From a virus: a DNA stretch of 64,000 nucleotides. The stretch's first letter is position 1; each line of letters begins with the position of its first letter. The notes under the pieces were generated by a model. That model made no database searches. It was not told the origin of the DNA and saw nothing but the letters and a program-made list of their open reading frames with translations. The position numbers and the translations under genes are program-made. Location of the stretch: the IMG/VR virus record IMGVR_UViG_3300045988_114464, positions 49,687 to 113,686 of that record; one strand, written 5' to 3'. Below are positions 32,127-57,881 of the stretch, one piece after another.

Positions 32127-33089
32127 TCACATTGATTTGCGGTCTTTGAACTCTGCGAGTTTGTGGTCTGCATACATGGTTCTGCCTTTGATTTTAGAAT
32201 ATCCTAAATATCCGTTCATTCTCTCAATACGAGTGATGTTTTTACTGCCACATTTAGGACATTCATCTTTATCAATGAAAGAAGCGCCACAATCTTCACA
32301 ATAATCAAGCTGTAGATTTACACCTTCATAGAAGCCCATATCCATTGCTCTACGAATGAGAGTTTTCATTGCTTCAATATTGTAGTCTGTAGTATAACGA
32401 CAATATTGAATATTACCACCATTACATAGATGGAACATTGGATATTCAATATCTTGCTTTTGAATAGGCGAAATATCTTCCCATACACCACAATGAAACG
32501 AATTAGAAGTGTAAGGACGGTCAGATACGCCCTTAATAATGCCGTATTTCTTGCGGAACTGCTCGACCTGCAAACCGCAAAGGGATTCAGCAGGAGTTCC
32601 GTAGAGAGCATATAGAATGTTGTCGATTTTCTTATATTTCTCAGCATAATCATTGATAAACTTCAAAACTTCAATGGCAAAAGTATTATCTTCGGCAATG
32701 GTTTTACCGTTATACAGTACACTGGTTTCATTGAGTGCAGTAATACCAAAACTCATTGTCATAGGACGAAGGAAATCTTCGCCAATTTCTTCTTCTGGGT
32801 CAAAGTGACCATTAAGAAAACCGCCTTGACAGAAAGCAAGTGGGTTAGTACCAGCTTTCTTGTGAGAAAGATAAGTAAATGTGCGCTTGTGAATAGCGCG
32901 GCACATATCAAGATAATAAGTTAGTACGTCATAAAAATCCTTGTTTTCTTGCTTTGCTTTAGCAAGAATCATAGGAAAGTGAAGGGAGATTGCTCCGAGG
33001 TTACAACGCCCTTCATATACAGGCTTGTCTTGGTCATCTGCGGGGTACATACCGCCACGCTCATACCAAGGTGAAAGATTTGCTCGACA
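32127..33089 (-). CDS. nrdD: anaerobic ribonucleoside-triphosphate reductase, exon 2
   Basis: Starts CRANLSPW. C-terminal Zn ribbon CEDCG...CPKCG and glycyl-radical motif RMNGY. Confidence 0.9.
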   Translation of the reverse strand, partial: CRANLSPWYERGGMYPADDQDKPVYEGRCNLGAISLHFPMILAKAKQENKDFYDVLTYYLDMCRAIHKRTFTYLSHKKAGTNPLAFCQGGFLNGHFDPEEEIGEDFLRPMTMSFGITALNETSVLYNGKTIAEDNTFAIEVLKFINDYAEKYKKIDNILYALYGTPAESLCGLQVEQFRKKYGIIKGVSDRPYTSNSFHCGVWEDISPIQKQDIEYPMFHLCNGGNIQYCRYTTDYNIEAMKTLIRRAMDMGFYEGVNLQLDYCEDCGASFIDKDECPKCGSKNITRIERMNGYLGYSKIKGRTMYADHKLAEFKDRKSM

Positions 33090-33910
33090 CAAGGGAATTA
33101 TATCCCTTAGACTATATCATAATTGTTTGGTCAATTCTTCGCGCTTCCATAGCAAGAATTGCACTTGCTATGTACTCTACTTGGTTACTTTCTGATACAA
33201 CCCAAATTACATATCAGATACCCTTTCGATAGTCGTTTAACATACATATTCAAATTTGTAATTATCGAAGTAATTAGGACTTAATTCGCCTTTTAGCACT
33301 CGCGCAATTTTGTGCCTATCCATATGTAAACATCTACCAGCTTCACGAATAGAAGTGAAATTTTGCACATTGCCTTCTTTGTCAATAGCGCGAATAGCCG
33401 TGTTGTTTTTGTGTGTTCTATTGCCACTATCCCAACCATGTTGTACATTATAAGCATTAGTACACCATTCAAGATTTTCAAGACGATTGTCTGTTTTATC
33501 AGAATTGATATGATTAACGTACTTATAATTGTTAGGATTTGGGATGAAACAATGTGCTAAGATAACATGAACTCGTTCATGTACAAAACTGTGGTCAGGT
33601 AAACTACGCATTACTTGCATATATCCATCACTGCCTTTATGTGGGGTGACTTGATTACCTGTGCGAGAGTTATAAAAGTTAAAATTTTCATCTACCAAAA
33701 ATCCGTTGTATTCTTTATATTGCATTTTATCACCTTCTTTCGTATAAAATCATTTGAATATGCTTAGCACAGCGATTATTTCATACTTTTGTATGAACCT
33801 TCCCTGTTAGCAGAGATATTAACAAACCATTTCCTGTTTGAACTTACGTTATCTCCACACCATATATTTATATGTTCACGAAGTTTTACATGGGCTATCG
33901 TGTCATTTCA
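33090..33910 (-). mobile_element. group I intron in nrdD
   Basis: P1 is AUGGGU paired with GCCCAU, with a U.G pair at the 5' splice site. The 3' core is GATATAGTC followed by a P9 hairpin. Omega-G at 33090. Splicing restores ...ISRMG-CRANLSPW. Confidence 0.85.
33237..33725 (-). CDS. intron-encoded HNH homing endonuclease
   Basis: VNHINSDKTDNRLENLEWCTNAYNVQH (HNH_3 pattern). Lies entirely inside the nrdD intron. Confidence 0.8.
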   Translation of the reverse strand: MQYKEYNGFLVDENFNFYNSRTGNQVTPHKGSDGYMQVMRSLPDHSFVHERVHVILAHCFIPNPNNYKYVNHINSDKTDNRLENLEWCTNAYNVQHGWDSGNRTHKNNTAIRAIDKEGNVQNFTSIREAGRCLHMDRHKIARVLKGELSPNYFDNYKFEYVC

Positions 33911-35098
33911 ACCCATTCGACTAATAGTTACACCATACTTTTTATAAATTTCTGGTGCATAGCCATCACCTGTACACGAGATAAAATCGGGGTACATACA
34001 TTTGCTACTGCAATCAATCGCTTCATCAAACAGCCATTCCAGTTCTTTGCCTTCGCCGTGAAGTTCTTTATCATAAAGGAAACTTAGTTTAGGAAATAGC
34101 ACAGGATGTTTGAAACCTTTCTTACCTTGTCCTTCCTTGCGTACCCTTAGGCAAACAGAAGATAGCATAGATTCCATACGGTTAGTACCCAGTCCAAAAG
34201 AAACAGCGGTAAACGGATAATCGCCACGACTTGAAGCCACAGAATTAAACTTCATTTCCCATGCTTGGAAACCTTGCTCTGCTTCACGAGTAACTTTATT
34301 AAAAGCATAGGTATCTGCCGCTTGTTCAAATGCCTGACTGCTTGTATTACCTTGCCAATTATCTACGATTGCGAAATAATCTTGGTAATATTTCTCATAA
34401 CTCTTTTGAGCATAAGGAGCAAGTAGCTTATCAATCTCGCTGATTGTATAGCCACCATACTGAGCCGCCGCCATATTCATTGCAACATCAGCTACAAGGT
34501 CGAAAGCTACATCAAGGCTATGCGGTTCTTCATAATCGAGATTACCCATAGTAAAACCACCAGTAAGAATTGACTTCATATCAGCAAGGCAACAGTTTAC
34601 ACTATCAAGTCTTGAGCCACGGTCGTGAATATAGATATAGCCTTCAGACATTGCTTGTTCTTCTTCGATAGTAAGGAAGAATTTCTTGTAAAGTTCACTG
34701 TTTAATTCATTGTACACAATAGCCTTTTGTGTGGTTACAAGAGCACTATCGGCATTAGCATTGCTTCTATCTCCGATAAAAGATAGAGACAGCTTCTTGC
34801 TATATACCTTATCCAACATTGAAGCAAAGGCGCTCTTATTGTCACGATATTCACGATAAGATTTTGCTACCGCTGAATTAACCGAATCAAGAGCAACTTC
34901 CACCATATTGTGAATAGTATTGACAGGAACAGGAGTTTCATTATACTGTAGCTTGCCACGAACGGTTGATACAACCTTATCTTCGTCATTCTTAGATAAA
35001 GGCATACATACACGTTCCGCACTTTTTTGGATAGCTTTGCGAATCTTGTTTCCGTCAAAATTTACGATAGCCCCATTCTTTTTAAGGACTTTAATCAT
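33911..35098 (-). CDS. nrdD: anaerobic ribonucleoside-triphosphate reductase, exon 1 (ATP-cone N-terminus)
   Basis: The N-terminus MIKVLKKNGAIVNFDGNKIRKAIQ fits an ATP-cone. Ends ...ISRMG at the 5' splice site. Confidence 0.9.
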
Positions 35099-35748: not shown

Positions 35749-36237
35749 TCACTTCACGCTAATGCTCTTGTTCTCCACCAGCTTAACACCATGTAGCGGA
35801 GTACCACTCTGTACCATCTTCTTGAGGTCGGTCTTGCTATACTTGTAGGTTTCAATCTTAGTGCATAGGTCTTTGTGGAACTTGAGAAATTCTTCTTCAT
35901 TGATCTCGGTGCTTGTAGACTTACGGAAAGAAATCTTGCAACGTGCAGTTTCAAACTTGCTACCTTGCAGGTCATCAGACAGCATAACCTTTAGACGATT
36001 GATAAGATTTTCCTTGACCTTTCTACGCTTTGCAAGGTTGACTTCTTCCTTCTTGATAGCGTCACACTCGGCTTCAACAGACTTAATGTAACAAGCGATG
36101 TTTTCAATCTTTTCGTCATGTGCTACTTGAAGCTGGTCAAGTAGCGACATATCGGTAAGGATTTCGCCAGTTTCTTCGTCAATCTCGATGTTGTTCATAA
36201 AGTCAAGAATTTGAGAGTTAATATCATATAGTGTCAT
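35749..36237 (-). CDS. Gp157-like protein (siphovirus Gp157 family)
   Basis: RBS ggagg before ATG 36237. Coiled-coil N-terminal half with IENIACYIK...AEC.AIK.E, typical of Gp157-like proteins. Confidence 0.5.
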   Translation of the reverse strand: MTLYDINSQILDFMNNIEIDEETGEILTDMSLLDQLQVAHDEKIENIACYIKSVEAECDAIKKEEVNLAKRRKVKENLINRLKVMLSDDLQGSKFETARCKISFRKSTSTEINEEEFLKFHKDLCTKIETYKYSKTDLKKMVQSGTPLHGVKLVENKSISVK

Positions 36238-36945
36238 TTTGATTCCTCCATTAAATAGTTGTACCATGTTTCAGCCATTGCTTGCGCGATAGATGGGAAA
36301 GTTTTACTACGATTCTTAGCGCGTTCAGCTTGGTTCTTACCGCCTTGAGCGTCACACCAGTTTACTCTTTGTCCATTGTGGAGATAGTATTTAGCGTCCG
36401 GCTTATCAAAATCGTTACGTCTTTCAAGTAAAGGTAGACCCTTTAACCAAAGACAAGTGCGCTTCATGTCATAGCTTTCGTCATCTTTACTCGTGACAAA
36501 GTAATAGGGGTGGATAATCTGATTTGGCTTACGATAATGCGTGTTCATATAGCCAACAGGGTTTTCAATAGCAATATGCTTACAGTTGGCATGGACAAAG
36601 TTCATAAAGAAATCATACGCTTCTTCACGTTGCTTAATGCGTTCAGCAACTTTTTCTGGTGAGTTACATCGTAAGCTATAATGTCTTGTCCCTGCCACAG
36701 TAAGGTAAGTACAAGGTGGATGAGCAATGATTAAATCCCACTGTCCTTCCACCTTATGCACTTTGCCGTCCATTGTGGTAAATTCACAGTTACCGTTAAG
36801 TAAACTTAACACATCACCTTTAATATGCCATTCAGGGTGTCCACCGCTACACTCTTGAATGTCACAGGAGAAGCAACGCCCCCCCCAACTCACGGAAAGC
36901 CTTACAAACAGTTTGGCTTTCTTCACAAGCAATTAGAATATTCAT
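36234..36945 (-). CDS. DNA (cytosine-5) methyltransferase, reading frame broken at a G8 tract
   Basis: Motifs IIAHPPCTYL (PC) and IENPVG (ENV). The RBS-linked start MNILIACEESQTVCKAFRELGG (36945) is out of frame with the body ORF 36234-36932. G7 would restore the frame. Confidence 0.8.
36879..36886 (-). repeat. G8 homopolymer (coding strand) in the C5 methyltransferase
   Basis: Direct count: C8 on the + strand. Confidence 0.95.
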
Positions 36946-38674: not shown

Positions 38675-39389
38675 TTAATCATTATTATATTTTCCTTTCC
38701 ACCTAAACAGCTTTTCTGTTTTCTTAGGCTGATTATTCTTGTTATAGTCAAGCGTTCTTCTCAATTCCTTTTCCCAGACAACTTCAAAATCGTCTGGCGC
38801 TTCTTGCTCGGAAATAAATACAATACATCTCTTAGAAAGTTCACGCATATATTCCCAAAATTCTTCGTGGTTAAAATCACCAGTTGTATAACCAGTAGTT
38901 TTAGCATAAGGCGGGTCACAATATACAACCGCCCCGTTTGGAATATCAACTTCACGATAATCAAGACAAGTAAAATTGGCATTTTGTACACCTTGCAAGT
39001 CACGAAGTAAACTGCGTTCCGCTCGGGCACAATAATTGTCACCTCGTTTATTACTTGCCAACCCACCAAACCATTTACCACCAAACGAACAACCAAAACC
39101 GACAAAACCAGTTAATGCCTTATTCTCGTCTTTGTGCTCTTTGATGTAATAATATTCTTCTTTAGTGATAATAGAAGGTGGTGTCCAGCCAGACTGTAAA
39201 CCTTTCCACATTTCAATCAAATATGGATGCTTATCATTAAGAATTTTGGTTTCTGCTTTTACTTTCGCTTCAACAGCACAAGAGCCACAGAACAGACTTA
39301 CGAATGTCTGCCCCCCCCAAGTTCAAGGTGTGGTTGATAACTTGTGCAATCTGAGTTGAGATACGAGATTTTCCGCCCATGTATTGCAT
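38675..39389 (-). CDS. dam: DNA adenine methyltransferase (Dam-like, DPPY), reading frame broken at a G8 tract
   Basis: The start MQYMGGKSRISTQIAQVINHTLNLGG (ATG 39389, RBS ggagg) is out of frame with the body ...QTFVSLFCGSCAVE...DPPY (ORF 38675-39220). G7 would restore the frame. Confidence 0.8.
39311..39318 (-). repeat. G8 homopolymer (coding strand) in the dam-like gene
   Basis: Direct count: C8 on the + strand. Confidence 0.95.
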
Positions 39390-39390
39390 T

Positions 39391-39447
39391 GTTAATTACC
39401 TCCGAAATTTGTTTAGAAATACGAGATTTACCGCCTAAGTAACGCAT
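39391..39447 (-). pseudogene. orphan 19-codon 5' fragment of a second dam allele
   Basis: ATG CGT TAC TTA GGC GGT AAA TCT CGT ATT... encodes MRYLGGKSRISKQISEVIN. It parallels MQYMGGKSRISTQIAQVIN of the adjacent gene, and its 3' end supplies that gene's RBS. Confidence 0.65.
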
Positions 39448-40253: not shown

Positions 40254-40774
40254 TCACTTCTTCTGAATTTCTTCAAAGACAATCTGCTTTGGTAACATCT
40301 TGTGGCACACATACGCACTACTGAAAGGTGGGTTAAGGCTTGGCTTTTGGTCTGCGTAGTCCTTGAAGTAAGCAACTCTGCGGTTAAGGTACATGATTTC
40401 AAACTCATTGTTCTTAAATATATCGAACCTTCGCTGAGATTCAAACAAGCCTACAACACCCACCAGCATTGCGAACGGCTTGCCAATTTCAAACAGTCGT
40501 TCCAACACTTCTGTCTTGACGCTATAAGGTGGATTGCTGATAATCATGTCACACTGTGGTATTGGCATTGTGAAAAAGTCCTGACCATTATCAATGTGCG
40601 TACAGATTACCTTGTTGCCCTGTGCTTTAAGCATTTTAACGAAGTGTGATTCTTCTGTATCAAAAGGACACCATACCGTCAGTTGGGGGGGGCATAAGCC
40701 AAGATAGGCTTAACGGCATAGGGCGGTGTGTAGAAGTTATCGTTGCCAGAGCCAGCTACTTTATCCATTTTCAT
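40254..40774 (-). CDS. N6-adenine DNA methyltransferase (NPPY), reading frame broken at a C8 tract
   Basis: The start MKMDKVAGSGNDNFYTPPYAVKPILAYAPP (ATG 40774, RBS aaggagag) is out of frame with the body QLTVWCPFD...IISNPPYS (ORF 40254-40634). C9 or C6 would restore the frame. Confidence 0.75.
40685..40692 (-). repeat. C8 homopolymer (coding strand) in the NPPY methyltransferase
   Basis: Direct count: G8 on the + strand. Confidence 0.95.
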
Positions 40775-46691: not shown

Positions 46692-46720
46692 ATTATATCA
46701 CATTTTTATCAAGAAGTCAA
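46692..46720 (-). promoter_or_regulatory. sigma-A type promoter for the HNH-like gene, followed by a two-hairpin leader
   Basis: On the - strand: TTGACT, 17 nt (ending TGa), TATAAT. 9-bp and 12-bp hairpins at 46653-46676 and 46618-46648. Confidence 0.55.
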
Positions 46721-49242
46721 TTATTTTTTTCTTGGTTTTCACCATATCTTTGAAATTGAATCTCAATTTCGCCATTTTTTCTAACTTCAGTAATTAAATT
46801 TATTGGATAAGGAAAGATAGAATTTTTATAGGTCTTAACAACAAAAGTATCATCTCTACGGTAGCCTGTTAAAATTAACAAACATCCTCTGCCAAACCAT
46901 GATTTATCTACAATTATTCTTTCTCCATTTTTTTCGACAGAAATTTGCGCTTTATACTTAGCAAATTCAAGTCCATTAAATTTTATTTGTACTACATTAT
47001 TATTGGTGTCCAATATAGTAATACTATGATGAGCGTCATTACGCGCTATTACTGTTCCCATAATTCGACTAAGCTGATACTGTCGCCATTCACGCTTGCC
47101 GTACTTTTTAGTAACAAACATTGGCTCAGTAGGCAACTTATCAAATGTAGTAACATTGTATCTATCAGCGTCAATGCAAGCTAATTCATGCTCATTAGAG
47201 TAATAGGACAGTGCTTCAAAACTCCAATGATTAACGTTCATGTTAGGCAACTTATCACGCATACGAGCCTTGATAGATTGTTCGTTATACATTTTTAGGA
47301 ACTCTGGCTGGTTAATATAAGCCTTTAGTTCTTCAGTGACGTTCTTGAATAGCTTCTCAAGCGACTTATCTACAACAAGCGTTCTGCCTTCCTCATCATA
47401 CCACCAATCTACATTTTCTTCAAGTTGACTACGGCACATTGAATCGAAGAAAACTAATGCTCGTTCGTCAAGCCAATAGATTTTCTTTGACTTGAATTTA
47501 GGATGTGTACCATAGAGGAATTGCTTTGAACACATGTATTTTTTGAAAGCAAGTGGCATGGTAAGGGTGTTGGGTAGCTTACAGCCAATGCGTTGTAATT
47601 CAGCTAAATTAGCAGTGGTAAGTGTTTGTTTGCGAGGGGTAGAAAGGGCGAAATACGCTTGCATGACACGCATACGGTCAGGACAGAACTCATCAAAACA
47701 GCCAGCCTTAATTAGTTGGATAAACTTAGATGGTGTGATAAGTGTACCTTGGTATGAGTTGCGCGTATAGAAGTCGCGGAAAGAAGTGTAGGGGCGGTTT
47801 GCGATAATTTGTTGAGCAATTTCTGCGTTAATGGATGAAATACCGCCTAAACCGAAAAGAATGGTGTTATCTTTTTCTCTTGGCGTGAAGTCCATATCTG
47901 AACCATTAGCAGAAGGAGCACTAACATAGATATTAGATTGACGCATTTTATAGATGGCTTTAGCAATCTCTGAATAATCTGTACTGCCCTTGCGTTCGAC
48001 CTCTGATTCAACACCAGATGCTTCGGTGGATAGACACGCGCAATTCCAATATACACGAGGATAGAAATAATTAAGATTAAGTTCTTGTAGAGCAATAATT
48101 GAATAAGAATAGGAATGTAATTGGGAGAAGGAATATCCCATACTTGCCGCAAATACAACATTCCAAATATAATCAAGGAATACTTCTCGCGTACCAATTT
48201 TACGTCCATATTCAAAAAATTGTTGCTTTGCTTCTTCTTGTAGCTTTGCTGACTTCTTTGCGATGGATTTACGAAGTTTGTTGCTTTCTTTCAAAGTATA
48301 ACCAGCTACACGCTTATCCATAGACAAACGCATAACTTTTTCCTGTGAATCTGCAAGACCATAAGCGTCTGAAAGATATTCCCACAGAACTGCGCGTTCT
48401 TCGTCATTTAGTCCAAAGCTAATAGTGTCTTGTACCCATGCTTCGTGACTGTTTTTATAACGAATATAACGGTCAATAGGTGTTTCGTCTGCATTATCTG
48501 GTTGTAATCGCAATAGGCTATTAGCCGCAGACAAATCCATTACTGAGCGAGGTTTAGTTGCAGACAACGCTTTAGCCGAAATCGGAGTATCAAATTGAAA
48601 GACAGAATAAATAGATGGTAGAATATCCCACATTTTAGTATCATTGTATTCCAATACATCAGGATGTAGCCACTTGTAATATGTTGCTTTAAGTGAGCCT
48701 TCCCATGTAATTTTGCCGTTTGCTAACAGATAGTCCATTGTTTTATGAATCTTATCTGCCGCAGAAACCGATAGCATATCCATCTTAACCAGACTTGCGG
48801 CTTCGCTATCCCATAGGTCATAACAGGTGCTTAATGCTCCATCAGGCGAACGAATAGCAGAAACGTAATTAACATAAGGCTCGTTACAGAGCGTTACTCC
48901 TGCGGCGTGACGACCTCGATTAGTAATCAATCCTTCAAGACCAAGAGCGGATTCTTTAAGTCCTTCATATTTAGCCATTTCATTGACCATTTCAGTAATA
49001 GGTCGTTCTCCAAGCAAACATTCCTTTAGACTTGCTACTTTACCACGGTTGACAGGAACAAGAGATTTAAGATAACCAGCGGTATCATTTCCAATACCCA
49101 GTCCTTTACAAGCGCGTTCAATAGCTGTTTTTGCAGAAATCTTAGAAAAAGTAGTTACATTAAGAACCTTATCTTCTCCAAAGAACTCTTTCATTTTATT
49201 GACGATTGCTTTCTTTTTGGATGCTTCAGAATCGTTATCAAT
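46717..49242 (-). CDS. dnaE: DNA polymerase III alpha-type (C-family) polymerase, exon 2
   Basis: Begins IDNDSEA, completing the PD-IDND catalytic Asp motif. Long polymerase body. No RBS of its own. Confidence 0.85.
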   Translation of the reverse strand: MDNDSEASKKKAIVNKMKEFFGEDKVLNVTTFSKISAKTAIERACKGLGIGNDTAGYLKSLVPVNRGKVASLKECLLGERPITEMVNEMAKYEGLKESALGLEGLITNRGRHAAGVTLCNEPYVNYVSAIRSPDGALSTCYDLWDSEAASLVKMDMLSVSAADKIHKTMDYLLANGKITWEGSLKATYYKWLHPDVLEYNDTKMWDILPSIYSVFQFDTPISAKALSATKPRSVMDLSAANSLLRLQPDNADETPIDRYIRYKNSHEAWVQDTISFGLNDEERAVLWEYLSDAYGLADSQEKVMRLSMDKRVAGYTLKESNKLRKSIAKKSAKLQEEAKQQFFEYGRKIGTREVFLDYIWNVVFAASMGYSFSQLHSYSYSIIALQELNLNYFYPRVYWNCACLSTEASGVESEVERKGSTDYSEIAKAIYKMRQSNIYVSAPSANGSDMDFTPREKDNTILFGLGGISSINAEIAQQIIANRPYTSFRDFYTRNSYQGTLITPSKFIQLIKAGCFDEFCPDRMRVMQAYFALSTPRKQTLTTANLAELQRIGCKLPNTLTMPLAFKKYMCSKQFLYGTHPKFKSKKIYWLDERALVFFDSMCRSQLEENVDWWYDEEGRTLVVDKSLEKLFKNVTEELKAYINQPEFLKMYNEQSIKARMRDKLPNMNVNHWSFEALSYYSNEHELACIDADRYNVTTFDKLPTEPMFVTKKYGKREWRQYQLSRIMGTVIARNDAHHSITILDTNNNVVQIKFNGLEFAKYKAQISVEKNGERIIVDKSWFGRGCLLILTGYRRDDTFVVKTYKNSIFPYPINLITEVRKNGEIEIQFQRYGENQEKNN

Positions 49243-50111
49243 CAATTATACCGTTGGTTATTTATTCCCAATACTTTAACACTGATTTAACAGTCGGTTT
49301 AGACTATATCTTCATCTCTATTTAAGAGAGGATGGCGCTGGATAAGGGGAGTTTCACCCCTTACCGCTTAGTCGTTGCAGATTTCTTTATCCATTTGTTT
49401 AGTCCAAACATTAAGAGTATAATTCTTTGTTCTCCGATATTTAACTAAACTCGTATATGAAATACAAGGGTTGTATTTCTGAAGAAAATCGCGTAGTTCT
49501 GTGCCACCTACTAATATAGGCGATACTACTTCTCCGTCTTTTAATACTTGATAATGTTTATAATTGCGTAAAGCGTTTATTCCACTATCTGTATAACTTT
49601 GATGGATATTTTCTTCTTGAGTAATCCATTTAAGATTAAGTATAATGATTATTATAAATATTGGCATCTTTGTGTCCCACAACAGCACCTTCAAACCAAC
49701 CGTTTATAAAATGCAAAGCAACCAATCTATGAATTAAACAATGTTTATATATTCCGTCATTTCGCTTCAGAGTAACACAAAGATAAGCACTTGTTGAACC
49801 ACAATAAGGGGACAATTTTCTCCATTTGTTTCCCATGCGTTTTGACATAACAGTTCCGTTATCTCCGATAGCGTAGCCATCATAATTTTTAATAGCTACA
49901 AATCGTTCACCGTTAATCGTAAAAAGTGTTTCCATCAGTTTCACCTCCTTTGTATTAAAATGTTTGGATAAAGACTTTCCACAGTATTGCCATGTTGCCG
50001 ATTCTAAACAACAAGGTTTCCACTGTTAGCACCTTGTAAAGGCACACCCTGTATGTACAGGTTCACCATCTTGTTTTCTATGCGTCACCGCATAGCCAGA
50101 CTATGTTGTTA
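49243..50111 (-). mobile_element. group I intron in the DNA polymerase gene
   Basis: P1 is CCAGAU paired with GUCUGG (11-16 nt into the intron), with a U.G pair. The 3' core is GAAGATATAGTC. Omega-G at 49243. Splicing restores ELPD-IDND. Confidence 0.85.
49368..49935 (-). pseudogene. intron-encoded HNH homing endonuclease, frameshifted
   Basis: RBS aaggagg before ATG 49935. ...VVGHKDANIYNNHY ends at a stop, and the motif continues as LNLKWITQEEN in the +1 frame (ORFs 49636-49944 and 49368-49694). Confidence 0.7.
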
Positions 50112-51563
50112 ATCTGGAAGTTCCACACCTCTCATGTGATTTAAGTGTCGCCAAGACGGCATATAATCACCAAGGGGAAGAGGGTCAATTTGAGTAATTG
50201 AAAGCAAATAGCAAGTTTCAAAGCCAGCCGCAGAACCACGGGCGGGCATTGACAAACTACCAGCGTCCCAAATCAGTTCGATAATTTCTGTCATCGTACT
50301 GTAATAAGACGGCATGGAAGTATGAAGCTGGTCACTGATAATTTTAAGTTCTTTCCATTCTTCGTTTAAGCGTTGAATGTAAGGTTCTACTTCCTTTCCA
50401 CGATTTAGCACCTTATCAATCAAACCTTGTTCAGCTTGATAGAAAAAATATCGTTCATGGATAGGGCGGTCAGCACTTGCATAATAACCAAAGTATTCAT
50501 ATTTATCATAATATTCTTTGAATTTATGTCGAGTATGAAAAATCTTTGGTAGTTTGTCTAATGGAATTTGAGGGATAATAGGGTCATGTAGAATGTTATA
50601 TTCTTGTACTCTATCAGCAATCTCATCGCTCCAAGCAAACATCTTATCAATTTGCTCATTAGTAAAGTCAATAAGTAGATATTCACGCAATTCTTGTTCG
50701 CTCATGCAATATGCCGTTGCATAAAATGAGTCTACTTCTCTATCGCCTTCTTGCGAAAGCAAATAGGTCTTGTGAATAACCGCATCTTCTTTTCTAAGAT
50801 AATGTGCGTCAGTTGTGGCGATAATAGGAATATTTGTCTTTTCATGCAGTTTCCACAACAAACGATTAACCTTGCTTTGGTCTGTATCGGCTTCACTTGC
50901 TGGCTGTACTTCAAGATAAAAATTACCTTTGCCAAAGATATACTGAAAATAATTGGCTTCTTCTACCGCTTGTTGAAAAGAACCTTGTAAAAGAAGTTTG
51001 TCAATTACCGAGCCTAAACAAGCTGAACTTGCTATTACATGACCACGATTACCACCAATCACTTCTTTAAGGTCGGTATAATACGTTGGTCTACGATAAA
51101 TTTTACCTTGTTTCCATGCTCTTATCCATGCTCTTGTAGACAATTCACGCAGTTGCTTATGACCTTCAGTATCAAGAGCAAGAAGAATAAAGTGATAATA
51201 CGGTGTAGAGTTTGGCGTTTCGCGGTTAAGCAAATCATCTTCTTCTCTAACAGCGTAAATCTCATTACCTAAACCAAGAGTAAATGGTCTATCTTTCTCC
51301 ATAGACTGCCATTTCTTCAAGGCTTGAATATGGCTACTGATACCTTCGTGTTCAGTAATACTGATACCACGCAAGCCAATATCATAAGCGTATTGAATCA
51401 AGTCTGGCAATCTATTTACTACATCAGGGAATCCAAGCATTGCATTGCTGTATTCCGAGTGCGTGTGATTATTGTACACTTCTAACCCCTCCTTAAAACA
51501 AAAATGGGAATAGCTTTTAACTACTCCCATTCTATCACATATCTGTTCACTTGTCAAGCTCAA
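50112..51563 (-). CDS. dnaE: DNA polymerase III alpha-type polymerase, exon 1 (PHP domain)
   Basis: PHP motifs NHTHSEYS, ITEHEG, ATTDAHY. Ends ...GVELPD at the 5' splice site. Confidence 0.85.
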
Positions 51564-56093: not shown

Positions 56094-56543
56094 TTAAAAG
56101 CCATATATAGAAATATCATATTCTACAGTAGCACTCCATTGATAATTACTACCCACTTGATGTGAAGAAAAATAACAAGGATATTGAGTACCTCCCACAG
56201 AAGAACTTACATTGTTATATTGCCAATATGAATTTCTCCTATAAGCAAATGCGCTACCTACCATTGTTGAACCACTTCCAGAAGTCGATAGTAATATACC
56301 ATCGTTTACTCCATAACCTGTTACTTGATTTCCCAACGAAGTATATAAAGATGATAAAGTGCCGTTTACATAAATATTAAATTTTATCAATAGCAAAGAA
56401 TATTCATCATCTACTGAAAAAGAATAAATATTGCAATCTGTTCTATTATATTCTTTGTTTATTGTCCCCGTTTTATGGTCGAGTAACGACAATGAAACAG
56501 AAGATGTTTCTGCTGAACCTTCCTTCATCACCTTGGCGTTCAT
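56094..56543 (-). CDS. hypothetical beta-rich protein (paralog 2 of the MxAKVMKE pair)
   Basis: ATG 56543 gives MNAKVMKEG...; preceded by the G-rich gtggggtgg. Confidence 0.55.
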   Translation of the reverse strand: MNAKVMKEGSAETSSVSLSLLDHKTGTINKEYNRTDCNIYSFSVDDEYSLLLIKFNIYVNGTLSSLYTSLGNQVTGYGVNDGILLSTSGSGSTMVGSAFAYRRNSYWQYNNVSSSVGGTQYPCYFSSHQVGSNYQWSATVEYDISIYGF

Positions 56544-56565
56544 GCTACCACCCCACTTTCGGAGT

Positions 56566-56877
56566 TTAGCCGAACGCAGTAAAATAAACCATTGTAGAGT
56601 ATTCGTGACCAATGTTGAACCGTAATGTATTTTCGTCCCAAGACATTTGAAATAGAATTATGTCGTGGTCTTCTAAGCCTTCTAAATTGTACACCTCGGT
56701 TTGACCATTGACAGCAATTCCGTATTTGTCCTGTCCGAATTTGACAGTAATAAAATATGGGTCGAATGAAAATGTTACTGTATACATTCGTGAATAGTGA
56801 ACCGATACCGATTGTACTTCGATTCGACAACTGTTGTTTTTCGAAGAAAACATTTCTTTCATTACTTTTGCATCCAT
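56566..56877 (-). CDS. hypothetical protein (paralog 1 of the MxAKVMKE pair)
   Basis: MDAKVMKEMF...; the ATG lies 8 nt after the G8 tract. Confidence 0.55.
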   Translation of the reverse strand: MDAKVMKEMFSSKNNSCRIEVQSVSVHYSRMYTVTFSFDPYFITVKFGQDKYGIAVNGQTEVYNLEGLEDHDIILFQMSWDENTLRFNIGHEYSTMVYFTAFG

Positions 56878-56885
56878 TACTTACG

Positions 56886-56893
56886 CCCCCCCC
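56886..56893 (-). repeat. G8 homopolymer 8 nt upstream of ATG 56877
   Basis: Direct count: C8 on the + strand. Confidence 0.95.
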
Positions 56894-56945
56894 AACTGAA
56901 CGAGAAGTTTGTAAGTTGTGAACATCAGGAGGATTGCTTACGCGC

Positions 56946-56990
56946 TCAACGTAAGCCCCCCCCCAGTGAAACAATGGTTTGGTTAATCAT
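56946..56990 (-). CDS. 14-codon leader ORF crossing the G9 tract
   Basis: RBS aaaggagg 9 nt before ATG 56990. Encodes MINQTIVSLGGGLR followed by a stop, as sequenced. Confidence 0.4.
   Translation of the reverse strand: MINQTIVSLGGGLR
56956..56964 (-). repeat. G9 homopolymer inside the leader ORF
   Basis: Direct count: C9 on the + strand. Confidence 0.95.
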
Positions 56991-57023
56991 AGACCAAATC
57001 CTCCTTTATAAATTATATTAACC

Positions 57024-57881
57024 TCACATAAAAGCAGAGGTTTGAATCTTAGTAATCATGTTGCTTAGAGCAACAGCAAGTTCTTGCCTTGTTACTTGCT
57101 TAGTAGGATTGAACTTACCGTGATTATCGCCTTGCATAACACCATACTTTGTTACGATTTCAACAGCATCACGCGCCCAATCATCGACATTATCCTTATC
57201 TTCGTACATCGCCAGTGGGTCTTTCTTTAGGTAAACGCAAAATGCGCTATCGACCTTGCGATTCTCAGAAGGATTGTTTACGACCTTGCCGTTGTGTAGC
57301 TTTCTTACACTGCCACCGCCATCAAGGTTCATAGCATAAACTGCATGATATTGTAGAAAAATTGCAGTCATTTGCTCAAAAGTCATACCGGGCTTATCTA
57401 CGGTCAGCACAAGAACATTACCAGTTTCGGTAACGCCAATAGCAGTACGAGCCGTTCTGTAATTCAACGTCTTAGCGTTGCCATATTCCTTGTTTGCCTT
57501 GCCGTCAATAACCAGCATAGGATAAGCGGTCATAAAGTCGCGCCATTCCTTCTCGTTATCCTTGCCATATTGTAGCGTCTGCGCCTTATAGCAAGTAGTA
57601 CCCATGCCTACAAAGCCATTCTTATAGTTTTGCTCAGCGTACATAGACACGAACGACATGACATTGTGCCCTGTTTTCATATCAAATAGACCGCCGTTTA
57701 CCATGATGTTCGGCTTGTTCTCAGCACGGTTATAGTAATGCTCAAGCATCTCTGTCGGCTCTGCCAGCTTACAGAACCTTACTTCTTGAATGCTGTCAAA
57801 AGGGATAATATCAAGCTGTGTATATTCATTTACATACACAGTCTGAAAAGCCATATATTCATTCAAAATAAATCTCTCCAA
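57024..57881 (-). CDS. phosphodiester glycosidase (NAGPA/DUF2233-like) domain protein with C-terminal SLH motif
   Basis: ...RTAIGV...NLDGGGS... core. The C-terminal WARDAVEIVTKYGVMQGDNHGKFNPTKQVTRQELAVAL fits an S-layer homology motif. Start uncertain. Confidence 0.6.
   Translation of the reverse strand: MERFILNEYMAFQTVYVNEYTQLDIIPFDSIQEVRFCKLAEPTEMLEHYYNRAENKPNIMVNGGLFDMKTGHNVMSFVSMYAEQNYKNGFVGMGTTCYKAQTLQYGKDNEKEWRDFMTAYPMLVIDGKANKEYGNAKTLNYRTARTAIGVTETGNVLVLTVDKPGMTFEQMTAIFLQYHAVYAMNLDGGGSVRKLHNGKVVNNPSENRKVDSAFCVYLKKDPLAMYEDKDNVDDWARDAVEIVTKYGVMQGDNHGKFNPTKQVTRQELAVALSNMITKIQTSAFM

Follow-up and report, generated by a model that had tools for sequence, protein, structure and literature searches.

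We analysed a 64,000-nt stretch of viral DNA (positions 49,687 to 113,686 of IMG/VR record IMGVR_UViG_3300045988_114464; hereafter the window) and, within it, a DNA methyltransferase-like gene on the minus strand whose reading frame is broken near its 5' end by a run of eight G residues (G8). Gene order in the window is helicase, small open reading frames (ORFs), a Sequestin-like gene, the methyltransferase-like gene, a Gp157-like gene, and nrdD, and the same order was found in relatives; coordinates are collected in Table 1. Read directly on the minus strand, a Shine-Dalgarno sequence and a 6-nt spacer lead into ATG 36945, as an earlier sequence-only reading of this DNA had proposed. This AAGGAG-N6-ATG arrangement is kept in the closest relatives, and related lineages have an AAGGAG-type site with 6-7 nt spacing. 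The frame opened by the ATG translates as MNILIACEESQTVCKAFRELGGALLLL (MNILIACEESQTVCKAFRELGG upstream of the tract); past the eight G it continues ALLLL and closes at a TGA, in agreement with the ORF listing. The peptide encoded ahead of the tract corresponds to strand beta-1 and helix alpha-A of a Rossmann-like fold (strand 2-6 and helix 8-19 in the model described below), and C7, E8, E9, and Q11, which are invariant in the family, are located there.

The remainder of the gene is in the adjacent frame, and is intact as the sequence-only reading had claimed. The body ORF as called (36234..36932, 232 aa from a TTG) reads ...SVSWGGRCFSCDIQECSGGHPEWHIKGD...AHPPCTYL...ENPVG; two invariant motifs, PPC (in AHPPCTYL) and ENP (in ENPVG), lie in the gene body, which overlaps the beginning of the Gp157-like gene downstream of it. 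We considered TTG 36932 as the true start and rejected it: it lies 13 nt inside the ATG ORF and ~19 nt from the only Shine-Dalgarno sequence, the first 15 residues of its product are the conserved N-terminus read out of frame, and the invariant CEE.Q loop is lost. Deletion of one G (G7) restores the protein, giving a 236-aa ORF that reads ...AFRELGGRCFSCDIQ... across the junction. The frame is also restored at G10 (236-237 aa for the two in-frame lengths), and is lost at G6, G8, and G9, with products of 27 aa at G8 and 45-46 aa at G6 or G9. According to the model, the tract in its G7 state encodes Gly21-Gly22, in a loop between helix 8-19 (alpha-A) and strand 23-28 (beta-2); this loop should tolerate one more glycine, the G10 state.

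The repaired protein matched PHROG 757 ('DNA methyltransferase') over residues 1-234 (E 8.6e-57). A tblastn search of 50,697 phage records matched 412 of them, at a best identity of <=58%; in 176 of the 412, one piece spanned the junction and covered at least 80% of the query (residues 1 to ~227). The consensus of 44 relatives, EFRxLGHEAYSCDI, has the same length as ...AFRELGGRCFSCDI, and G7 is therefore the length expected by the family, as the sequence-only reading had suspected from its N-terminal module. That reading had also seen no further lesion in the gene. We looked for a failure of alignment across the junction and for more frameshifts or stops in the body and found neither.

The label 'C5 methyltransferase', also proposed earlier, held at the level of the predicted fold and did not hold by sequence models. 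Pfam PF00145 gave zero matches to the repaired protein or to any of the 44 family members, even at E <= 10; the repaired protein was unmatched in NCBIfam; a profile search of PDB sequences with the family found no match; and hhalign of the family against M.HhaI returned a probability of 0.5% (the M.HhaI sequence was verified against PDB, E 6e-226). An AlphaFold2 model was built for an in-frame relative that is 83% identical (P0002; pLDDT 91.1, pTM 0.88). All 45 of its PDB Foldseek matches at E <= 0.001 were C5 DNA methyltransferases (DNMT3A/3B, DNMT1, M.HaeIII; probability 0.99-1.00), with query-normalised TM-scores that were low across these matches (0.38-0.49), and the BFVD viral predicted structures that matched the model include proteins named cytosine methylase. 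P76, P77, and C78, along with E127, N128, and P129, are invariant in the 44 sequences; PPC and ENP appear to resemble motifs IV (PC) and VI (ENV) of C5 methyltransferases. The F-x-G-x-G of motif I was not found, the loop after strand 2-6 being an invariant and glycine-free A-C-E-E-S-Q. Because the fold matched without a sequence-model match and with a non-canonical motif I, we call the protein C5-methyltransferase-like; its activity is predicted and its cofactor use putative.

The G8 tract belongs to a set. In the window, which has a G+C content of 38.5%, the lengths of G/C runs were bimodal: ten runs of 5, one of 6, zero of 7, four of 8, and one of 9. The A and T runs followed an ordinary distribution, declining smoothly to a maximum of 7. 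Six matches to GGGGGGGG, in five tracts, were present in the window, against a mean of 0.13 expected from 100 dinucleotide-preserving shuffles of the window, none of which reached six. All five tracts (>=8) sit in the minus-strand early/replication module, and three of them break three different DNA methyltransferase genes, 60-83 nt past a Shine-Dalgarno-linked ATG, leaving all three out of frame in the window. Besides the C5-methyltransferase-like gene, these are a gene for a D12-class (Dam-like) N6-adenine methyltransferase, which matches PF02086 (E 2.2e-20) once repaired to G7, and a third methyltransferase-like gene, which carries NFYTPP...NPPY, a weak EcoRI_methylase match, and its own Shine-Dalgarno sequence and ATG at 40774.

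Megablast against the 50,697 phage records gave no match, either with the 2 kb surrounding the gene or with 25 kb of the window; in IMG/VR, the protein search yielded only relatives at <=58% identity and the exact flank pattern was unmatched. A collection of 5.8 billion proteins held relatives at 73-98% identity. The only sources of close relatives were this collection, its source contigs, and one metagenome pattern scan: 18 contigs were fetched by protein and four by a degenerate flank pattern in metagenomes, for a total of 22, or 23 sequences with the window. The longest related contigs measure 110-114 kb, the phages being of ~112-114 kb, and one source is labelled pig gut metagenome. Among 27 distinct called proteins (clusters at >=90% identity), 10 were in frame (MNILIACEES...LGGRCFSC), 13 were the out-of-frame body ORF (M(K)KAKLF...SWGGRCFSC), and four were called from an internal Met (MDGKVHK...), the DNA of two of these four being G9 and G6. 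The tract occupied the identical codon position in all 23 sequences. It was G6 in two, G7 in six, G8 in twelve (the window and L010-L012, L014-L018, L027, L035, and L036), and G9 in three, so that G7 was the only in-frame length among them. A neighbour-joining tree built with the tract removed required at least four length changes, and the closest pairs differing in tract length were 98.7% (G8/G6) and 97.7% (G8/G9) identical.

Homopolymers are error-prone on some platforms, and all four tract-bearing genes of the window are out of frame; both points would suit a sequencing or assembly artefact in which a homopolymer miscall had added one G to a true G7. We nevertheless regard an artefact as highly improbable. 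Several other samples and assemblers yielded contigs with the same G8, and other assemblies have G6, G7, or G9 at this site, which speaks against a uniform bias. To bring the different genes into frame, corrections in opposite directions would be required, and the A and T runs of the window, as described above, are ordinary.

Comparison of near-identical contigs located the length changes more closely. Between L014 and L022, over a methyltransferase-bearing segment of 1,879 bp (98.9% identical), the sole indel was the tract of the methyltransferase-like gene (G8 vs G6). The sole indel was the tract of a Mom-like gene both between L010 and L012 (6,925 bp, 99.96%; G9 vs G7) and between L019 and L020 (4,550 bp, 99.6%), and was the Dam tract between L016 and L017 (13,199 bp, 99.6%; GGGAGGGGG vs GGGAGGGG). 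Of the length characters in these genomes, the tracts thus change fastest. Their states assort independently: the methyltransferase is off with Mom on in L012 and L019, both are off in L010, L011, L020, and L021, and in L038 the methyltransferase is on with Dam and the third methyltransferase off.

The Mom-like gene (PF25680) lies between the methyltransferase-like and Gp157-like genes in some relatives and is missing from the window. Its tract stands in the same context (TAC TTG GGG GGG C), G7 giving a 210-aa product and G9 products of 71 + 143 aa. Relatives also carry a variable C8/C9 in or beside a PAPS-reductase-like gene, a variable C6/C8 in an ORF of 188 aa that lies upstream of the helicase, and a variable G7/G8 after a Lar-like restriction-alleviation gene, with gene calls of 105 and 129 aa.

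The ratio of non-synonymous to synonymous substitution rates (dN/dS) was computed by the Nei-Gojobori method after setting every tract to G7. It fell between 0.05 and 0.13 in every pair with computable dS, including pairs in which both members are out of frame; for L010 (G8) against L019 (G9) it was 0.05. In the most divergent pairs synonymous sites were saturated (dS ~1 or not computable). Within the first 24 codons, before and across the tract, synonymous changes between lineages equalled or exceeded non-synonymous ones, and therefore the ATG frame upstream of the tract is under selection. None of the 23 copies had another frameshift or stop. The tract is still present across lineages whose synonymous sites are saturated. 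In distant family members, Clostridium and Oscillospiraceae genomes included, the loop is LGHEAY, encoded by TTAGGACATGAA, with no tract; a single scan of a genome collection found only tract-less members, in Clostridium, Oscillospiraceae, Scatovivens, and Treponema metagenome-assembled genomes. The tract is therefore a maintained feature of one phage clade.

A gene that is out of frame in the window and in most related assemblies might be taken for a dispensable pseudogene, recently inactivated. Such decay is the least probable of the explanations considered here, and barely credible, given low dN/dS at divergences where synonymous sites are saturated, the lack of any second lesion in 23 copies, conservation of the start codon, the Shine-Dalgarno sequence, and the upstream 20 codons, and in-frame alleles scattered through the tree. 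The methyltransferase-like gene is under purifying selection and is not a pseudogene.

What was observed directly, namely the tract, its non-random occurrence, its length polymorphism, the intact and selected gene, and the concentration of indels in tracts, corresponds to what is expected of a contingency locus: a repeat within an ORF that is longer than composition predicts (five tracts against 0.13 G8 matches), a repeat number that differs between close relatives with unchanged flanks, and a gene that is otherwise intact and under purifying selection. We consider it likely that the G tract is a slipped-strand contingency locus, or simple-sequence repeat, in a functional phage C5-methyltransferase-like DNA-modification gene. 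The sequence-only reading had seen one tract; the set of length-variable tracts changes the interpretation from a frameshifted gene to a probable switch.

The proposed mechanism is as follows: replication slippage (slipped-strand mispairing on phage DNA) would lengthen or shorten the G run. With G7 or G10, translation from the Shine-Dalgarno-linked ATG would run into the catalytic body, yielding the full 236-237-aa predicted enzyme. At G8, as in the window, translation would stop after 27 codons, and at G6 or G9 after ~45. In the out-of-frame states the body would be made without strand 1, helix A, and the invariant CEE.Q loop, and the enzyme would be absent. A phage population would then be a mix of modified and unmodified genomes, and the same device in the Dam, third methyltransferase, Mom-like, and PAPS-reductase-like genes could generate combinations of modification states. 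By analogy, the presence of such switches on several modification genes suggests bet-hedging across opposing restriction types, the benefit being gained between hosts with restriction-modification systems, which methylation would block, and hosts with Type IV nucleases, by which methylated DNA would be attacked. We infer the loss of enzyme in out-of-frame states, as we do the enzymatic activity and the selective reason.

Several points weigh against this interpretation. The evidence consists of assembled contigs, each with one tract length, and it is from these that we infer switching within one population and the resulting mixture. Identical methyltransferase genes always carried an identical tract length across contigs. 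Some contigs are probably the same public samples assembled twice, and the number of independent lineages is ~13, not 23 (G8 in seven, G7 in four, G9 in one, and G6 in one). Out-of-frame G8 is thus the commonest state (~7 of 13 lineages), and each of the four major clades has it. In the three lineages where the third methyltransferase was seen (the window, L027, and L038) it is C8 (off), and Dam is G8 (off) in both of the two where it was seen. A pure on/off switch under balanced selection is not obviously expected to favour 'off' so consistently, and purifying selection on lineages that are always off needs either frequent switching or expression from off alleles.

Expression from off alleles is what recoding, or leaky expression, would supply. 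RNA polymerase slippage, or a +1 shift of tRNA-Gly from GGG to GGG, would yield some product from G8, making G8 the low setting and the tract an expression attenuator for a potentially harmful enzyme; such recoding may coexist with DNA switching. It would account for G8 as the modal length in all four clades and for Dam and third methyltransferase tracts of exactly 8 wherever seen, and the dN/dS of 0.05 between the G8 allele of L010 and the G9 allele of L019 is easily explained if off alleles make enzyme. Read from the sequence, the G run also permits perfect re-pairing of tRNA-Gly after a one-base shift. We still judge recoding unlikely. In-frame alleles are frequent (G7 in 6 of 23 contigs, and 10 in-frame proteins among 27 distinct ones), and each of the three phases is represented, whereas a programmed frameshift or slippage site would stay fixed out of frame. 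The direction of the shift differs by gene, the methyltransferase and Dam requiring one base fewer and the third methyltransferase one more; therefore no single ribosomal mechanism would serve, and only bidirectional polymerase slippage would fit. The zero-frame codon after the tract varies by lineage (GCG, GTG, GCA), with no conserved stop or rare codon. Efficient bacterial transcriptional slippage, for its part, is documented mainly for A/T runs. Within recoding, ribosome slippage is less likely than RNA polymerase slippage. A phage-encoded frameshift-suppressor tRNA was rejected, as ARAGORN found no tRNA in the window.

More tentatively, with the balance falling slightly against it, the clade may carry a 'modification phasome' in which four to six DNA-modification genes each have an independent poly-G/C switch. 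The C5-like methyltransferase, Dam, third methyltransferase, Mom-like, and PAPS-reductase-like genes would be the members of this possible phasome. In a stronger variant of the same idea, the prevalent eight-base 'off' length may itself be tuned, giving low expression as polymerase slippage reads through it.

The Dam-like gene has an N-terminal module in tandem (39311-39447, minus strand): MRYLGGKSRISKQISEVIN from ATG 39447 and MQYMGGKSRISTQIAQVIN from ATG 39389, in different frames, the first copy ending in GGAGG, the ribosome-binding site of the second. The ATG 39389 module (MQYMGGKSRIS...) joins the body at G7 or G10 and the ATG 39447 module (MRYLGGKSRIS...) at G6 or G9; at G8 neither does so. 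With two start modules in different frames, a long ORF with the GGK motif would therefore be available in two of the three tract phases, although the ATG 39447 product probably has a non-native linker, 19 residues longer.

Of the two tracts outside methyltransferase genes, the G9 lies within a short leader ORF (MINQTIVSLGG...) that has a strong AAAGGAGGA Shine-Dalgarno site (region 56861-57030). The G8 sits 8 nt 5' of ATG 56877, at the ribosome-binding-site position of a 103-aa ORF (56566-56877, MDAKVMKEMF...), which is followed by a paralogous ORF (internal MNAKVMKEG... in 56094-56612). Pfam gave zero matches for the small ORFs around these tracts (56886..56964). The distance from leader end to next start varies with the lengths of the G9 and G8, which hints at translational coupling. 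Coding-strand G tracts share the context TT-G(n)-C (window 36879, 39311, and 56886; L018 4317; and the Mom tract), and in-frame coding tracts read Leu (TTG) followed by Gly-Gly: ELGG|R, NLGG|Q, YLGG|Q, and EIGG|R (L018). This context may be the easiest way to build an in-frame G7, or may reflect a common origin or mechanism of the tracts.

Table 1. Positions of the features discussed, in window coordinates except for the last two rows, which give sites in related contigs.
Feature	Position	Strand	Details
Shine-Dalgarno AAGGAG	36957-36952	-	Read directly; then ATAACC (6 nt), then ATG 36945-36943
5' coding segment	36887..36945	-	From ATG 36945-36943; encodes MNILIACEESQTVCKAFREL
G8 homopolymer tract, C5-methyltransferase-like gene	36886-36879	-	Coding-strand G8 (exactly eight G); begins at ORF nucleotide 60; in frame at G7 / G10
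TGA closing the ATG frame at G8	36864-36862	-	ORF 36862..36945, 27 aa
Methyltransferase-like gene body	36234..36878	-	+1 frame; stop codon 36236-36234
Tract in D12-class adenine methyltransferase gene	39311-39318	-	Coding-strand G8; gene 38675..39447 (-); in frame at G7 / G10
Tract in third methyltransferase-like gene	40685-40692	-	Coding-strand C8 (+ strand G8); gene 40254..40774 (-); in frame at C9 / C6
G9 and G8 tracts	56964-56956 and 56893-56886	-	Between NAGPA-SLH gene and small ORF
nrdD, N-terminal part	33908-35098	-	ATP-cone + NRDD profile positions 2-243
HNH / I-HmuI-like homing endonuclease ORF	33237-33725	- region	Between nrdD parts
nrdD, C-terminal part	32127-33092	-	NRDD positions 264-560
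DNA polymerase III alpha, piece 1	50109-51563	-	PHP + start of NTPase domain
DNA polymerase III alpha, piece 2	46717-49245	-	Remainder, finger, HHH
Mom-like tract sites in relatives	L010 7140, L011 1397, L012 5878, L019 2750, L020 1635, L021 2536		
Further variable tract sites in relatives	L013 379, L014 5737, L015 2565; L016 5845, L017 5846, L018 1511; L022 2429, L023 399		

Two other genes of the window are split. The anaerobic ribonucleotide reductase gene nrdD (32127-35098, minus strand) is in two parts with a homing endonuclease ORF between them, and the interruption therefore looks like a mobile intron. Relatives have nrdD without interruption, at 703 or 716 aa, or else in a 1,032-aa version in which an intein may be present. 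The gene for DNA polymerase III alpha (DnaE-type; 46717-51563, minus strand) is in two pieces with ~860 nt between them; at the split point L024 has a LAGLIDADG-type ORF, and the gene of L016 is uninterrupted at 1,296 aa.

Methyltransferases encoded by phages are usually regarded as fixed anti-restriction equipment. If several of them are switched stochastically, the modification state would be a property of the population rather than of the genotype, and so would host range and sensitivity to both classical and methyl-dependent restriction. Should the clade carry a phasome, each burst would contain several epigenetic types, suited in advance to hosts whose combinations of classical and modification-dependent restriction differ. 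This bears on the persistence of phages in communities with diverse defences. It also bears on annotation, for these genes are called truncated ORFs or pseudogenes in most assemblies, and on the handling of homopolymer 'frameshifts' in metagenomic phage genomes, which are often silently corrected or discarded. A direct test is feasible, near-identical phages that differ only at tracts being present in several public samples.

With the C5-cytosine DNA methyltransferases (M.HhaI, M.HaeIII, DNMT3A; PF00145) the phage protein shares the predicted fold of the catalytic domain. It differs in being short (236 aa), in having no recognisable target-recognition domain, and in the invariant A-C-E-E-S-Q that takes the place of the glycine-rich motif I.

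In bacteria, phasevarions are controlled by mod genes of Type III and some Type I/IIG systems, in Haemophilus, Neisseria, Helicobacter, and Campylobacter; these are chromosomal restriction-modification genes, and their switching alters host gene expression. Phase-variable bacterial DNA methyltransferases of this kind have been described (e.g. PMC4889913). The phage gene resembles them in that its simple-sequence repeat lies towards the 5' end of a methyltransferase ORF, where a frameshift would turn the gene on or off. It differs in that it belongs to a phage replication module and is an orphan methyltransferase-like gene, no restriction partner having been seen.

Campylobacter, as a host, itself relies on poly-G phase variation. 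In its phages, poly-G tracts are said to lie in receptor-binding or tail-fibre genes, where changes in length reportedly switch the frame and produce subpopulations of phage that differ in phenotype. Sorensen et al. 2021 (Cell Rep 2021;35:109214), as cited in PMC12823448, are the source for poly-G tracts in genes of Campylobacter phages. The likeness is a poly-G inside a phage gene, a change in whose length would switch the frame. Here, in contrast, the tracts are in DNA-modification genes of an uncultured gut phage of ~113 kb with 38% G+C and Firmicutes-type ribosome-binding sites.

The A9 tract in agt of phage T2 often gains or loses a base, reversibly, and so toggles DNA glucosylation, allowing escape from either of two opposing Type IV systems, TgvAB and McrA/BC (Gomez, Barrick and Waters, bioRxiv 10.1101/2025.10.21.683753). 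In the A+T-rich T2 genome, runs of at least 6 number >100; wild-type T2 is 'on', and the switching of agt was demonstrated by experiment and read counts (bioRxiv 10.1101/2025.10.21.683753). Both cases involve a mononucleotide repeat within a phage DNA-modification gene. In our clade, unlike T2, the runs are of G/C in an A+T-rich genome, strongly non-random, few, and concentrated in modification genes; the tracts are mostly 'off' in the assemblies, and switching is proposed from the comparison of relatives. Phase-variable methyltransferases and phage contingency loci are thus already known.

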